Origin: Moniliella sp. 'wahieum'
Lineage: Eukaryota
NCBI GenBank assembly: GCA_003971905.1
Contig: RSEE01000007.1
Coordinates: 744,001-808,000 of the forward strand
Length of the DNA stretch: 64,000 nt
Reading direction: 5' to 3'
The notes beneath the pieces are model-generated. The model was not told the DNA's origin and searched no databases. It was given only the letters and a program-made list of their open reading frames with translations. This document shows positions 2,846-52,714 of the stretch, one piece after another. Positions within the stretch are counted from its first letter, which is position 1; each line of letters begins with the position of its first letter. The position numbers and the translations under genes were made by a program.

Positions 2846-2945
2846 GGTCGGATGGTCTAGCTGGTCATGACGTACGCTTCACATCCTGGAGCAACAGGTC
2901 TCGTTGAGACGCGTAAGGTCCCCGGTTCGATCCCGGGTTCGATCA
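2846..2945 (+). tRNA. tRNA-Val(CAC) with 26-nt intron (2884-2909)
   Basis: Acceptor GGTCGGA/TTCGATC, anticodon stem TACGC/GCGTA, CAC at 2880-2882, T-arm CCCGG-TTCGATC-CCGGG, T-run terminator downstream. Confidence 0.95.
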
Positions 2946-7320: not shown

Positions 7321-7412
7321 GGGTTCGTGGTGTAGTGGTATCATGCCTCTTTAGGGTGAGCGCATCTGCTTTCTCGTAGAGGTGGTCCTCGGTTCGATCC
7401 CGGGCGGACCCC
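7321..7412 (+). tRNA. tRNA-Pro(AGG) with 20-nt intron (7357-7376)
   Basis: Acceptor GGGTTCG/CGGACCC, anticodon stem CCTCT/AGAGG, AGG at 7353-7355, T-arm CTCGG-TTCGATC-CCGGG, TTTTT downstream. Confidence 0.93.
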
Positions 7413-12388: not shown

Positions 12389-12483
12389 GCTTCAATGGGT
12401 TAGTGGTATACTACATCGTTGCCAGACAGCCCTAGTGCCTGTAAGACATCGATGTGACAGGGGTTCGATTCCCCTTTGAAGCA
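12389..12483 (+). tRNA. tRNA-Gly(GCC) with 24-nt intron (12425-12448)
   Basis: Acceptor GCTTCAA/TTGAAGC, anticodon stem CATCG/CGATG, GCC at 12421-12423, T-arm AGGGG-TTCGATT-CCCCT, T6 terminator. Confidence 0.95.
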
Positions 12484-45755: not shown

Positions 45756-46818
45756 GCCTCGTTTCCTCGCTCCCCCACTGTTTTTATCCATGACCGTATG
45801 GGTCTCTGCGTGCCTCGCGCGCACGCACGCCCTTCACCCGCCCCCCCCGGTCTGCATTTTCTCTCGCCGCATCCCCATGTCTCTGCTTCATACGTCTCGC
45901 ATCGCCCCCCCCTCTCCACCCATCGTTTCCCGCACTCCTCGCTTTGTCTTCCCCTCGCTGGATTGGATCGTTCCGTGTCGGGCGCTGTGCCTCGGCTCCC
46001 AGATCTCAAGCATGAGCCCATGACCTGAGCTGGCCCCCTCGCACCCCGGCCTTGGATCTGTCACGTTTCTCTGTGCGGTTCACCGGGCGGGCTTTGGACG
46101 GCTCGCTTGGTCCCGTCTGCGCACGAGCCACGGCTTGTGGGTGCCTGGCTCGTCGCACCTCCCTCTCCGCTCGTCCCGCTGTATTTTCTCAGCATATACC
46201 TCTCGTTGCTGGTCTGGAGCGCTGGCGCTCAGACGGTTCTTATTTGTTTGTTTGAATGTACCGTACCATCTTTTCTCTGGAACTTGGCTGGGGGTTGGTC
46301 TGTGCATGGTATATTGGTCTGGTTCAGCACTGCAAGGTGGTCGAATCGCGTGAAGCTTGAAGCTTGACAGGTCTCCCAGCTGCTCCGGGGACTGGTAAGC
46401 GCCCAAACGCTGCTGCCCAGCCACGCCTCAAGGAGCACTATGGGCACGCTGTCCTGACGTACTGAAGGGCAACGTTCCCATTGCCAGCGCTGGGCGCTCG
46501 GGGAACTTTTGGGCTGCGGACGCTAGAGGGCGGGACTACCAGTTACTAAAAACTAGTTGCTACTGGCGGGAGGCGGATGCGAACCGCGCAGCGTCGAACG
46601 GGATGGTGTCCTGCATGGCAATGTCAAGGGTCACTCACGAGTCAGGCACTAGTCACTGGTCACTAGCTCACTCTCCATCGTCTCGCGCATCCGGCCCCAG
46701 GCCCAGGGCCCCAGCTCAGCACAGCGCTGAAGCTGAACTCAGCATTGCTTAACGTCTTAACGTTTAACTTGGTTGCCGAGAGTGGCGCTTAGCTTAGCGC
46801 GCTAAGCTTAGCTTTCAG

Positions 46819-47028
46819 TGTGACCACCAGTGGTCTAGAGCCCATCGGCCTTCAGTGACACGTGGCCCGATCCACACAGTGCACCGGGGCAGTGAGTTCC
46901 GACCCTTCCACGGGTTTCCACTGGCCTCCAGGCCAGGAGCCTATCAAGGCCCATAGCTCTAGCTCTCCTTAGCTCTTGAATGCCATCTCCATCGACCATC
47001 GCCAGCATCGCTAGCTAGGCCTGTGACA
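46819..47028 (+). repeat. 5' LTR (210 bp)
   Basis: Matches 51876-52085 except for two 1-nt indels. Confidence 0.97.
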
Positions 47029-47042
47029 GAGCTACAATCTGA
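47029..47042 (+). other. Putative primer-binding site complementary to the tRNA-Tyr(GUA) anticodon arm
   Basis: GAGCTACAATCTGA directly follows the LTR; its reverse complement is TCAGA-TT-GTA-GC-TC. No TGG is present. Confidence 0.65.
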
Positions 47043-47175
47043 AGCACCCCACTGGCGCAAAGGATCAATACTCAGCACCACCATCGGCGCCCACCGTCAC
47101 CACCACCACCCCAACGCCACCATCGGCACCACACACCAACCAATTCAAAAAAAAACAAAGGAAAAATCAGCCACC

Positions 47176-48408
47176 ATGCCCCCCGAACTGGAAGAAAACA
47201 CCCCTCCTCCCGAAGTCTCTGTCATCGAAGAGGCGCAGGACATCGACGAACCGACCACCACCCCTGTCTCCGACCCGACCTGGCAACAGGCCCTCACCGA
47301 CGTCAGAGACAACCTCCTCGCAAGCACCCGCGCGTTCAAGCCCACCAGCGCTGACAATCTCCGCTCCACATGCCGCTCGTTCGCTACGGATGCACACACG
47401 GCGGCGTATGGACCGAAGAGCAAGAAAACACCGGGCGGAAAGGAAAATTGGATCTACACGCTCACCCTCGCGTTGGAGAAATATGTATTGGCCGTTGAAT
47501 TCACGAAGCCGCAAAACACCCGTGAGGCCCTTGCATCCGCGAGTGAGGACATGGCCGAGCTTCGCCACGCTGAGAAACGCGCGTCAAAAGAGATCGAGCG
47601 TACCAACGCGACGCGCAAGGACGCCTTCCGCGACCCCACCGAATATGTGCTCTGGGAGCCCTCCATCCTCAACATCCTGGACCGCATCCACCCCGCCGCG
47701 AAGGACATCGTTCGCTCCGGTCCATCGTCACCACACTACGACTCGTCCCTCGATCTACGCCTCCAGAACCTTCTGTGGTCCCACCTCCCGAACGACGTTC
47801 AATCTGCCATTATTGCACAGGACAACGTTGACACGTCAGCTGACTTGCTCCGTGCCCTGCGAAACAAATACGGTACGGTCGACTGCAAGACGTATCATGA
47901 ATTGTCCAGTCGCTTTCACCACTGCTACCAAAACCGGCGCAGCGGGAGCGCGTTCCTATCTGAAATGGGGACGCTCCGCAACCGGATCAGCGCAACCACA
48001 CCGATGTCGGACGAGCAATTCCGCCGTATCCTCGTCGGGGCCCTCCGCGACCCTGGTGACCGTCGCCGCCTAGAGCACATGACTCTGGCGGAGACAATGC
48101 AAGACGTGGAGAGAATCCCAGCGGACCCAGAGTACAGAATTCCGTACCGGGGCCGTCACCCCCGGACCGCCAACTCGGGCGCTGGCAAACACGACAGCGC
48201 GGGATCCCAGCAGCATAGCGGGGGTCCTCCTGCCGGTGCATCTCCCCGTAGCGGGGGTGCTCTTGCGAGAAAGCCGTCCGGCCACACCGGGGTTCCTTCG
48301 AACAACAAATGGCACCGCAACAGCTCCGCGCGAGCGCACATTGCCACCGAAGACGACGTCTCCGAAGGGGAGACCCTGTCTGTGGACCTTGCCCTATCTG
48401 ACAAATAG
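47176..48408 (+). CDS. gag: Gag (410 aa, no CCHC knuckle)
   Basis: GCCACC-ATG start; copia Gag-like helical region (SADLLRALRNKYG..FLSEMGTLRNRI..ILVGAL); ends at TAG 48406-48408. Confidence 0.85.
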   Translation: MPPELEENTPPPEVSVIEEAQDIDEPTTTPVSDPTWQQALTDVRDNLLASTRAFKPTSADNLRSTCRSFATDAHTAAYGPKSKKTPGGKENWIYTLTLALEKYVLAVEFTKPQNTREALASASEDMAELRHAEKRASKEIERTNATRKDAFRDPTEYVLWEPSILNILDRIHPAAKDIVRSGPSSPHYDSSLDLRLQNLLWSHLPNDVQSAIIAQDNVDTSADLLRALRNKYGTVDCKTYHELSSRFHHCYQNRRSGSAFLSEMGTLRNRISATTPMSDEQFRRILVGALRDPGDRRRLEHMTLAETMQDVERIPADPEYRIPYRGRHPRTANSGAGKHDSAGSQQHSGGPPAGASPRSGGALARKPSGHTGVPSNNKWHRNSSARAHIATEDDVSEGETLSVDLALSDK

Positions 48409-51400
48409 GAACTCGCGGGCAACCAGGACATCCAGTCTCGTCACGACTCGGGCGCGGATCCTAGCATCTGGAAGGATCTCAGGGTATTCAAAACCCTCAA
48501 GCCCAGCAACCGCTCAATCGAAATCGCTGATGGAAAACATATTAAAGCCAGTGGACGCGGAACATGTAGCATCGGTATCAAGTGTACCGACGGCAAATGT
48601 ATCCATGTAGACCTACCCGGCAGTCTATACGTCCCCGGCATAGCAAGCAATCTCACGAGCGTAGCGCAAATAAGTGACGCAGGCCACGCATCCTGGTTCG
48701 CCCCCCACCGAAAAGGTATCTGGTTAAATGACAAGCATGGCAAATATCACCAAATCGCGGATTCCTCATACAAGCTGAACATCGTCCCGAAACCGACACC
48801 CACAAACGAACACGCGGCCAAAGCTGCCGTCGCCACCCAACACACCGCAGCCAACACCATCGAGCACGTCATGTACGTTCACCAACAGTACAACCACGCC
48901 GCGCTAGACCTACTCCCGACACTAACCGCCAACGCGCGAGCGAGCCTCCGCGTCAGCCCTGCCCAAATCCGACGCATCCGCCCCTTCTGGCATTGTCCCA
49001 CCTGCACAAAAGCTCTGGCCAAAGCGCCCAGCCACCCTTCGCGCCACGGCCGCCGCATTTCGGAACGTCCTTTCGAAGTACTGCACGCCGACGTAGTCGA
49101 CCTCCCTCGCATCACTGGCATGGGACATGGATACGCCCTGGTCGCGGTTGATGACTGGAGCCGTTACACCTTCGCTGTTCCCCTAAAGACGAAAGGACAA
49201 GCCACGGCGGAGCTGAAAAAACTCATCACCCGCGAGCAACGCATCGGAAAGGACCGTCTGCTTCGCATCTTGAAGACAGACAATGCCCCCGAGCTCACCA
49301 GCGCACTCCGTCCGTTCCTTGAATCCGAAGGTATCACGACGGAAACCACCATACCAGGCCAAAGTCAATCAAATGGGGTGGCCGAGCGAGCCATCCAGGC
49401 AATCACCACACGCGCGCGCCAACTCATCATCGCCTCGGGCCTCCCGACATCAAACTGGTGGCAGGATGCCTTGCTGGCAGGGTGCTGGACGCACAACCTC
49501 ATGCCACCGACATCTCCACGCCAGGGCACACAATCTCGGGCTGAGCTGTACAAGGGGTCACCCCCACCGCTGCCAATGCACGCCTTCGGATCCTTGGCGT
49601 ACCTTCACCTGGCCCAGGACCAACGTGACCATAAGCTCAGTCCGCGGGCTGTCGAAGCCATGCTCGTCGGGTACGACGCAGGTCGAGGTACAAAGGGTTG
49701 GCGCTGGGCTGTGTACGACCCGTCCATGGGCACGTTCCGATCCCAATGGGCAAAACCATACAAGTGGACCCAGCGCCAATACCACGAGGTTTTCCCCGAC
49801 CGCTTTCCGCCTGACGTATCTCGCTTCCCCGCTCAACCCCTGCCTGACAGAACTATGACTGACACTGAAACCAAAAAGGGAGAAGAAAAAATGAACAAAA
49901 TTGAAGTTGCAAATCCCAACACACCACCGAGAATCAACACTGATACTGACGCGACCATCGCAAGACAAAACGACACCCATCCAACCACCCCCACCACCAG
50001 ACGGTACCCCGCCCGGACCCACCAGCGCCGTTTTGACCTTGACTGGGCACAGCTCCCCGTAGCGGACGACCCTCATGATGGTGACTTCCACGCACACGCT
50101 GCCGCGCTGCCTCCGGTTCCCCTCCCTGACGGTAGTCGTAGTCCTGCGATCGGCCTACGCTTCCCACTGCCCGACACTGCCCTGCCCGCGTACAGCGACG
50201 GTCTCCATCCGCCTGAATACAAGGCGATGATCGCCCTTAGCGAGCCAGGGCCGCACGAGCGCATCCAGCTCACCAAGGACGGAGTACCTGTTGCACCCAA
50301 GACAATGAAGGGCCTCCAATCACACCCCTCATTCGAACCAGTGCTGGAGGCGATGCGCACGGAAATCGACACCCTAGCCCGCTACGGCACATTCGAAGTC
50401 GTCACGCCCCCTCCAGACGCAGCTGCTGATTGGTCTATGGCGCATCAACACCAAAACGGACGCGGACGGAAATTTCCTACGCTACCGAGCCCGTCTCGTT
50501 GCCGGGGGCCACCAGCAGGATGCTGACACATGGGGACAAACATTCGCCCCTGCCGTGCGCACTCCTGCCATCCTCAGCCTTATCGCCCTTGCTGGAAAGT
50601 TCGGCCTCCACCTCTTCACTGCTGATGTGCACTCTGCCTATTTGAACGCTCCCCTCACGGAAAAAGTGTACCTCCGCCCACCCCCATTCTTTCCCGAGGA
50701 AAAAGGCAAGGTCTGGCGTCTCCGGAAAAGCCTATATGGCCTCCACCAATCCGGCGCAAACTGGGCGGTATTCATCCGTGACTTGCTCCGCGGAGACATG
50801 GGTTTTTACAATCTCTGGCTGAGCCGTGCTTGTTCATCCGACCCCGTAAAGGCGACACGGTCCTCCTTGCCGTGCACACCGACGATCTTCTCATCGCCTG
50901 CACGTCTCACGCACGCTACGATTCCTTCCTCACTGAGATCAACACCCATATCGAGGTGCGGGGAAACGGCCCCCTACACTACCATCTTGGCTGCCAGTAC
51001 GACACCATAAACGGGAAACTGTACCTTAGCCAGCCAAAATTCATTGAGGAATCCATTGCCAAACATGAGGTTCCGCCACCCCTGGTTATGGGCCTCCCCC
51101 ACCCCAGCAAGATGATCCCCGCGCGCACCGACCCCAACCGCCCGCACTGCCCGCCGAGAGACGCGACTATCAAGCCAAAGTAGGATCTGGGCTGTGGGCT
51201 GCCCGCATGTGCCGCCCTGATGCGCTGTTCGGCATCTCAGCTCTAAGCCGAGCAACTGCCGATCCCTCCAAGGCCCACCGCGCTGCGGCAACAAACTTCC
51301 TCCGCTACCTCTACGGTACCAAGGGCTACGGTCTCCGACTAACACCCGAGCCTAACGCACCCGCTCTCGCGCTATACACGGATGCCGACCTGGCTGGAGA

Positions 51401-51881
51401 CCCTGACCAATGGCGTTCCACGTCGGGATGCCTGCTTTTCGTCTACGGGGTTCCAGTGTCCTGGAGGAGCGTGCGTCAACCCAAGAGCGTCACCAACACT
51501 GCTGCGGCCGAATATACGGCGGGATATGAGGGCCTCATTGATGCGAACTACGTTAAAAACATCTTACTGGAGCTCGGTGCCATCACCTCAGACGAGCCCA
51601 TACACTGGTACTGCGACAACATGGCGGCACTTGCCTTGGCCGAAAAAGTGGGCAGCACGGGCAAACTACGTGAGCTGAACATCCGGTACCACAACGTACG
51701 CCAGCATGTCGACTCGGGCGAAGTCAAAATCGCGCACATTGCTGGAAACGAGAACCCGGCCGACATCCTCACCAAACCAGCCACTAAGGTCTCACTCCTG
51801 GCCAACTTGCCTCGCCTCAAGCTTGAGGACGTTACAACCTTCCATCGTACCACTGAGACCTCTGGCCAGCGGGGGTGTTGA
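48409..51881 (+). CDS. pol: Pol: protease, integrase, reverse transcriptase, RNase H (RT part frameshifted in the assembly)
   Basis: PR DSGA, IADG, LYVPG..SNL.SV; IN HQQYNH..CPTC, LHAD, KTDN, NGVAER, GTKGW; RT DVHSAYLNA, KSLYGLHQSG, HTDD; RNase H YTDADLAGD, AEY, CDN, ADILTK; stop codon inside the 3' LTR. Confidence 0.95.
51868..51875 (+). other. Short polypurine tract (AGCGGGGG)
   Basis: Immediately precedes the 3' LTR TG. Confidence 0.7.
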
Positions 51882-52085
51882 CCACCAGTGGTCTAGAGCC
51901 CATCGGCCTTCAGTGACACGTGGCCCGATCCACACAGTGCACCGGGGCAGTGAGTTCCGACCCTTCCACGGGTTTCCACTGGCCTCCAGGCCAGGAGCCT
52001 ATCAAGGCCCATAGCTCTAGCTCTCCTTAGCTCTTGAATGCCATCTCCATCGACCATCGCCAGCATCGCTAGCTAGGCTGTGACA
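51876..52085 (+). repeat. 3' LTR (210 bp)
   Basis: TGTTGACC...TGTGACA followed by the TTCAG duplication. Confidence 0.97.
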
Positions 52086-52714
52086 TTCAGCGTAAAAAGC
52101 CAGCGCCTCAGCCCATCTTCCATCGTCCTGCCGCACCACAGGCCAGGCACAGGGCTGGGGGGGCTATAGGCTGGGCTAGGCCGTTCGGCCTTCGGAGAGT
52201 GCTGGTGATCTAGTGATTGACAAGGTCGAACTTGGGTGGCGCGGTTGCACCAAGCAGGCTCACGCGCTCACGTTCAGCAGGCCCACAGCCCCCCTGAGAA
52301 CAGTGGAGAGCAGTGGCTGCGATCGTTGCTTGGCATCGGGGGGAGCCGGGAGAAGGAGGCCAAGGCGAGGGTGGCTGCAATGGCTGATGGGATGGACGGT
52401 CGATGACCTCATCAACCTACCTCCTCGAGCGCCTCATTCAAATTCACCGGTCACTGGTCACCGGTCGCCCTGCCGCAGCTCACGTGTCACACACCCAAAC
52501 TGCCCTGGCCTGGAATTTCCGATTCGTGAGCTGGGAGCGTGAAGCGTGACGCGTGATCCGAATTGCCTTACGCAAACTACGTTTGAAATGTGACCTTGGC
52601 ATCCCCAGCCCCCCTTTTCTGGCACAAACTTTTTCTGGTGCGAGCGAGCGAGCAACCAACCCCAGGCAGCCCCCGGACCCCCCAATCGACAATCGTTCTT
52701 CAGAGGGGTGGCCT

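Follow-up and report, generated by a model that had tools for sequence, protein, structure and literature searches.

How does an LTR retrotransposon of Moniliella sp. 'wahieum' prime its minus-strand cDNA when no TGG occurs within 24 nt after its 5' LTR, the first one lying at 47053? The element is located in a window of 64,000 nt, the whole stretch of DNA that we analysed, taken from the forward strand of assembly GCA_003971905.1 (contig RSEE01000007.1, positions 744,001-808,000); all coordinates below are those of the window. Sequence reading, a repeat search and Pfam identified it as a Ty1/copia LTR retrotransposon of 5,267 bp, extending from 46819 to 52085 (Table 1). Its Pfam domains follow the Ty1/copia order of Pol_BBD, rve, SH3_retrovirus and then RVT_2, and the motifs DSGA, HHCC, HTDD and ADILTK succeed one another along pol in the order protease, integrase, RT and RNase H. 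The letters of the 5' LTR run from TGTGACC to CTGTGACA. The direct repeat of TTCAG that flanks both LTRs fixes the 5' LTR's end at 47028, so the 14-mer GAGCTACAATCTGA adjoins the LTR directly and is the place where a primer-binding site (PBS) would be sought. At the other end of the element, the purine-rich tract AGCGGGGG is, to judge from its position, the putative plus-strand primer site. Directly beside the element lies a near-palindromic stretch, GCTTAGCTTAGCGCGCTAAGCTTAGC (46780-46813), and further short duplicated motifs occur near it at 46640-46780.

Table 1. Coordinates of the element's features and of the tRNA calls in the window
Feature	Position	Strand	Basis or remark
Target-site duplication TTCAG, left copy	46814-46818	+	identical 5 bases at 52086-52090
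5' LTR, 210 bp, TGT...ACA	46819-47028	+	direct repeat of 51876-52085
Small hairpin CAGA/GCTACAA/TCTG over the LTR-PBS junction	47027-47041	+	MFE and centroid folds
Candidate minus-strand PBS GAGCTACAATCTGA	47029-47042	+	complement of tRNA positions 27-40; adjoins 5' LTR
PBS and leader, no listed difference from the ~96% identical copy	47026-47139	+	X1 contig, among differences listed
gag ORF, 410 aa, no Pfam family	47176-48405	+	ORF and Pfam search
In-frame TAG between gag and pol	48406-48408	+	12 codons ahead of protease motif DSGA
pol: protease, integrase, RT, RNase H	48409-51875	+	motifs and Pfam
Protease motif DSGA	48445-48456	+	motif
Integrase HHCC, rve	HHCC 48865-49005	+	motif and Pfam
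RT (RVT_2)	RARLVA 50486, HTDD 50875	+	motifs and Pfam
RNase H	CRPDA 51210, ADILTK 51759	+	motifs
Purine-rich tract AGCGGGGG immediately 5' of 3' LTR	51868-51875	+	read from sequence
3' LTR, 210 bp	51876-52085	+	direct repeat of 46819-47028
Target-site duplication TTCAG, right copy	52086-52090	+	matches left copy
tRNA gene, intron 26 nt	2846-2945		ARAGORN Leu(CAG), intron at 35/36; Rfam confirmed
'Pro(AGG)' call, 92 nt	7321-7412		ARAGORN; Rfam does not confirm
tRNA gene, intron 24 nt	12389-12483		ARAGORN with introns; Rfam confirmed

The 5' and 3' LTRs, when aligned, are identical except for two single-base indels, both in short runs. In the window copy, the reading frame of pol shifts three times, near 50417, 50802 and 51131, and at these places the contigs of two public runs have 2, 1 and 1 extra bases, respectively. 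The window copy shows five length differences in all, two between its own LTRs (46822 and 47021) and three against other copies, the latter being the pol frame changes, and every one of them falls in a short homopolymer or dinucleotide run. Errors of long-read assembly typically take this form; the copy may therefore really be intact, and the frame changes in pol may be such errors rather than mutations.

A second copy, about 96% identical, is represented by a 5,089-nt contig from sequencing run X1, which covers 46866-51953 with 184 differences. Two proteins of the second copy, both from a contig of this same length, were also recovered: P0001, an uninterrupted INT-RT-RH of 1004 aa with 95% identity, and P0006, a Gag of 410 aa with 94% identity that ends at the same residue as the window gag. 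With near-identical LTRs in one copy and an intact 1004-aa pol in the other, the element family looks young and possibly active. In a search with RT-RH, the closest relative outside the family was P0007, at 49%, and the rest of the matches listed reached at most 36%; these matches indicate that the copia lineage is isolated. P0007, a Logan-derived protein of 1210 aa, belongs to a sister family at 43-49% identity; it is without the ADxxTK and ARLVA motifs of the window element's family. All three close relatives (P0001, P0006 and P0007) came from the Logan-derived set ('lgn') only, and the nearest matches from other sources lay at about 29-36%. Most of the distant pol relatives among the matches listed carry PF14223 and PF13976. 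No relative of the element with DNA context was found in viral or genome contigs, an alignment-based query returned a single irrelevant integrase match at 27%, and a search with gag (47176-48405) among proteins of like length gave P0006 as the only homologue at E <= 1e-3. The sequencing runs listed as containing the element include no RNA run.

The reverse complement of 47029-47042, TCAGATTGTAGCTC, parses as tRNA positions 27-40, with T33, a purine at 37, a pyrimidine at 32 and pairs 31-39 and 30-40; the anticodon loop read from this 14-mer is UUGUAGC and the anticodon GUA. A sequence-only reading of this DNA had claimed that no TGG follows the 5' LTR and that the adjoining bases are the complement of an anticodon arm with GUA, and the position of the first TGG, 24 nt downstream, and the direct parse bear out both points. 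The site had been drawn as 47029-47045, of which 47029-47042 stands and the last 3 nt, AGC, fall outside the claimed complement. Within the window GAGCTACAATCTGA occurs a single time, even when 2 mismatches are allowed. The terminal CA of the 5' LTR would extend the pairing with a closed arm by two bases, to 16 nt. An excerpt of PMC1181622 describes nt 40, within the anticodon stem-loop, as the nucleotide from whose 3'-OH cDNA synthesis starts in Hemivirus elements. The geometry of the site, with the primer's 3'-OH at nt 40, is that of a Hemivirus half-tRNA, as had also been proposed from the sequence, and it agrees with the nt-40 start in that excerpt. Because this geometry was published beforehand and was not chosen here, we take 47029-47042 to be probably a half-tRNA PBS. 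Past these 14 nt, or 16 if the CA of the LTR is counted, nothing looks tRNA-like: the Rfam tRNA model found no match in the complement of 47029-47110, even when truncated hits and E values up to 10 were admitted. A reading of the leader as an extended tRNA 5' half, for which a D-arm-like GCGC...GTGC had been seen by eye, was rejected on the same search.

The comparison of copies also bears on this site. The differences between the X1 contig and the window that are listed (40 of 190) fall into two groups, 12 of them in 46902-47025 and the other 28 in 47140-47589; 47026-47139 has none, a reading of that segment that assumes listing by place (the rows are ordered to 47589, but those kept are the 'best supported'). 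X1 is the only run covering 47030-47060. By the differences listed, the flanks of the segment differ at 6-7% between the copies, and a difference-free gap of the same length arises in 3.7% of random placements, which is mild evidence that the PBS and leader may be under constraint. Just 5' of the gag ATG, the A-run of the leader at 47146-47155 is 3 bases shorter in X1 and 4 bases shorter in X2.

Which tRNA would be used? With Watson-Crick pairs only, a loop of UUGUAGC means that it would be tRNA-Tyr(GUA). In the mechanism that we propose, a host tRNA would pair with 47029-47042 through its nt 27-40, a stretch made up of the anticodon stem's 5' strand, the anticodon loop in full and the two nt that begin the 3' strand, and a cut in the anticodon stem would leave a 3'-OH at nt 40, from which reverse transcription would start. 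An intron after position 37 is usual in eukaryotic tRNA-Tyr genes; positions 37 and 38 are contiguous in the complement, so the primer would be the spliced host tRNA-Tyr(GUA), if the gene has an intron there. That the PBS of this young copia element pairs with a spliced tRNA-Tyr(GUA) half as primer is our preferred reading, which we hold tentatively and at slightly under an even chance. From the complement we infer a host tRNA-Tyr with this arm that would be cut and used as primer.

The registers that we tested combined offsets of 0-3 from the LTR with primer ends at nt 38-43, giving 24 geometries, and were judged by T33, a purine at 37, a non-stop anticodon and paired closing stem positions, with a pyrimidine at 32 as an option. 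The GUA register passes at offset 0 with its end at 40, and trivially also at 1/39 and 2/38. Consistent with the choice of Tyr(GUA) in the sequence-only reading, it is the only register among those tested that has a pyrimidine at position 32; one other register, Thr-UGU (loop ATTGTAG), passes only if A32 is tolerated. In yeast, human and plants, the tRNA-Tyr loop is CUGUA(A/G)A, with C32 and A38 and not the U32 and C38 predicted here, and the arms have GA at 30-31 and UC at 39-40, as in the predicted arm. Another tRNA gene in the window has the loop TTCAGAC, that is, U32 and C38, so such unusual loop ends are not foreign to the host. G37 is normally modified to m1G37, which blocks both pairing and reverse transcriptases; such a block would leave only 3 nt of copied primer for plus-strand transfer and counts against Tyr.

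The published half-tRNA primers that we found are all ANN decoders, which makes Tyr slightly unexpected and keeps tRNA-His(GUG) and tRNA-Thr(UGU) as rivals for the same kind of half-tRNA site, and we regard it as unlikely, if a serious contender, that one of these two is the primer. For His, the GUA register would be unchanged and the PBS U at 47033 would wobble with G36. In yeast and human the tRNA-His loop is UUGUGGC; its one departure from the predicted loop is at position 36, for which a U-G pair is possible, and this favours His. The wobble is nevertheless one that primer copying should erase over cycles, and His stems close with G31-C39, not with the required A31-U39; the GA...UC at 30-31 and 39-40 in the Tyr arms of yeast and human likewise favours Tyr over His. 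For Thr, the register would be shifted by one base, to a PBS at 47030-47043 with the loop AUUGUAG. If a pyrimidine at 32 is no longer demanded, this register satisfies the requirements for T33, R37 and stem pairs, and Thr fits the ANN-decoder pattern of the published primers, but the base next to the LTR then has no partner, and A32 and G38, both of which Thr requires, are rare.

A matching tRNA gene was sought in the window and in contig collections. No tRNA-Tyr was found in the window by ARAGORN, run with and without introns, or by Rfam. None of the three tRNA calls there is Tyr, two being intron-containing genes confirmed by Rfam and the third doubtful (Table 1). The mature form of the gene at 2846-2945 has 74 nt and is without a long variable arm; if the intron is placed canonically at 37/38, the gene may be one for Val(CAC). 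The contigs were scanned with a pattern that begins with the predicted arm, allows 0-38 nt of intron after position 37 and ends with the closing strand and a T-loop. There were 4 matches among metagenome contigs, 3 among genome contigs and 0 among viral contigs, and ARAGORN with introns recognised none of the 7 as a tRNA. Close relatives of the element occur only among Logan-derived proteins, so the scanned contig collections are probably without the host, and the negative result says little.

As an alternative to a half-tRNA of any kind, the primer might not be a tRNA at all, and the junction hairpin (47027-47041) or another small host RNA might provide or position it. Such an arrangement, which we consider improbable and yet deserving of attention, would resemble the 'conserved hairpin site' that replaces the PBS in fungal GalEa copia elements. 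The hairpin has a 4-bp stem and a 7-nt loop across the LTR end and appears in both the MFE and the centroid fold; fungal copia elements with a post-LTR hairpin and no tRNA-type PBS are already published, and the HTDD and CRPDA of the window element resemble the QTDD and CQPEA of fungal GalEa (PMC5445492). A related LTR in run X3 is also followed by a different, hairpin-forming sequence. In the published definition, CHSeq1 is palindromic with the last A of the LTR, and a complementary CHSeq2 lies 12-41 bp downstream (PMC5445492). Neither CHSeq1 (CTGATCAGT or CTAATTAGT) nor CHSeq2 is present in 47029-47090, and the fold of 47015-47140 is unexceptional against shuffles, with a z of -0.93. Moreover, the complement of any anticodon arm necessarily forms such a hairpin; the one seen here uses the terminal CA of the LTR and is the mirror image of the anticodon arm. 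The X3 contig itself, from a surface-metagenome run, is 202 nt long and matches the LTR at about 92% (46845-47029) before continuing with 17 unrelated letters, for which a perfect 5-bp hairpin with a 3-nt loop is possible. Its source may be a solo LTR or a 3' LTR, together with flank, or a related element with another post-LTR site.

The likeness to an anticodon arm might also be fortuitous, with the true primer site or mechanism being something else. As a background, we used the 127,950 sites on both strands of the window. Of these sites, 0.65% have the exact geometry, in which the offset is 0 and the primer's 3' end is nt 40; 1.05% have offset 0 and end no earlier than nt 40, and 18% fit at least one of the 24 relaxed geometries. 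The site is above chance if the published Hemivirus geometry is the prior test, and it is unremarkable if any geometry is allowed. The contig scans, which gave no tRNA with the predicted arm, also speak for coincidence. The site nevertheless has the exact published geometry with its low base rate, the element is otherwise young and functional-looking, and the PBS and leader are without change between the copies among the differences listed; we therefore judge coincidence to be quite unlikely.

Tf1-like self-priming, in which the 5' end of the element's own transcript, in such elements about its first 11 nt and within the LTR, would fold back on the PBS, is the least credible of the alternatives and is not supported; a better fit of self-priming is what the sequence-only reading had named as telling against itself. 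TAGCTC, which can pair with the PBS over its first 6 nt, occurs three times in the LTR (46953-46975 region), but that pairing covers 6 nt only, the LTR nowhere has complementarity of about 10 nt or longer to 47029-47042, and the best duplex between LTR and PBS lies elsewhere, at -13.0 kcal/mol, a value equalled by 21% of 500 shuffled PBSs. The TGGCGC at 47053 was rejected as a displaced conventional PBS because of its distance of 24 nt from the LTR and because, by eye, its complement is without a well-spaced T-loop; the surrounding stretch, also by eye, is unlike the 3' end of a tRNA.

If the half-tRNA reading with tRNA-Tyr(GUA) is right, the stop codon between gag and pol acquires a further interest. 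In the second copy, no indel is listed between 47146 and 50417, so gag to pol is uninterrupted by any listed length change, and the pol ORF of P0007 starts with a Met 8 residues ahead of the protease DSGA. Taken together with the Gag end of the second copy, these observations indicate that the separation of gag and pol is conserved and is not a lesion of the window copy; the identity of the stop as TAG is read in the window copy, and what is conserved elsewhere is the position of the Gag end or the pol start. A stimulatory structure for read-through was not found 3' of the TAG when the fold of 48397-48500, around and after the stop, was compared with shuffles (z -0.13, 90 of 200 as good), pseudoknots being outside the scope of the tool. 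tRNA-Tyr(GUA) is a near-cognate reader of UAG. A single tRNA-Tyr(GUA) might conceivably serve twice, one half priming cDNA and the intact form decoding the conserved gag UAG, a coupling that we consider highly improbable. Were it true, priming and the Gag:Gag-Pol ratio would hinge on a single pool of tRNA. In the literature we found only one other copia element, Tca2, in which an in-frame gag stop accompanies a half-tRNA PBS for a non-initiator tRNA; there the stop is UGA and the tRNA is tRNA-Arg(UCU), whose codon, AGA, differs from UGA by one base. On a speculative view, Tca2 and the window element would form a pattern of two for a coupling between primer and stop codon.

A full-text search of the literature found no tRNA-Tyr half primer, and a sequence-string search found none of the 13-15-mers of the predicted arm, in keeping with the sequence-only reading, which did not recognise this combination as a described one. 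Tyr would, if confirmed, be a new primer species for an already known priming mechanism. If the host tRNA-Tyr matches, it would be the fifth tRNA species among the half-tRNA primers of copia-type elements and, to our knowledge, the first half-tRNA primer with G37 and the first that is not an ANN decoder. Such a primer would bear on how copia-type RTs cope with modifications of the anticodon loop and on what cuts the tRNA. The element is apparently young and perhaps active, which would make it usable for experiments. A PBS is in itself an ordinary feature of an ordinary element class; the analysis also describes an isolated copia lineage with a conserved gag-stop-pol boundary.

Copia of Drosophila and Ty5 of S. 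cerevisiae are not known as gag-stop-pol elements, unlike the window element, whose PBS complement reads GUA and is not an iMet arm. In excerpts of PMC1181622 and PMC5371799, both are described as Hemivirus elements primed by the 5' half of initiator tRNA-Met. They share with the window element the Ty1/copia domain order and a PBS that adjoins the LTR without a TGG, and in the same excerpts this PBS complements the anticodon stem-loop, with the 3' end of the primer at about nt 40. A full-length RT tree does not follow the split between half and full primers, according to the excerpt of PMC1181622. The half-tRNA or internal primers that we found in the literature are iMet (copia, Ty5, Osser, 1731 and Bryco, and in Candida too), Ile, Arg(UCU) and Lys, all of which decode ANN codons. 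The sequence-only reading had named iMet and Arg in a list that was too short, Ile (PMC6317226) and Lys (PMC5445492) being published as well. With Ile and Lys on record, a half-tRNA primer other than iMet is not unusual in itself.

The Ile half-tRNA primer is that of Bianca, a plant Ty1/copia element (PMC6317226); Bianca, Osser, Bryco and Gymco-II differ from the window element in being plant Ty1/copia lineages with other tRNAs. Achilles, an LTR retrotransposon of Bactrocera oleae, is reported in an excerpt of PMC4580426 to have a tRNA-Tyr PBS and shares the tRNA proposed as primer here, but there the 3' end of the tRNA is used and not a half. Fungal GalEa elements are alike in having TGT...CA LTRs of about 235 bp, a 5-bp target-site duplication, ADxxTK, xTDD and CxP(D/E)A-like motifs and a hairpin directly after the LTR (PMC5445492). 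They differ from the window element in their CHSeq1 and CHSeq2, in a single ORF as against gag-TAG-pol, and in QTDD, CQPEA and KSRLVI as against HTDD, CRPDA and RARLVA. In FunCo1, a fungal copia clade, the PBS ATTAAGAGTCT complements an internal region of tRNA-Lys (PMC5445492). Compared by description, FunCo1 is reported almost only in Pezizomycotina and uses another tRNA, and it is a further case of a fungal PBS of the half-tRNA type for a non-initiator tRNA, as proposed for the window element. Tca2 (pCal) of Candida albicans has a PBS class homologous to an internal stretch of tRNA-Arg(UCU), according to an excerpt of PMC4139406, and its gag and pol are parted by an in-frame stop whose bypass is given as unexplained in an excerpt of PMC2194720. 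Its tRNA is a different one, and the excerpts describe a UGA with a potential pseudoknot, whereas the window element has a UAG without a predicted structure. Drawn by description and not by the sequence of Tca2, the likeness between the two lies in their being Ty1/copia elements that combine a non-initiator, internal-tRNA PBS, a putative one in the window element, with an in-frame stop between gag and pol (excerpts of PMC4139406 and PMC2194720).
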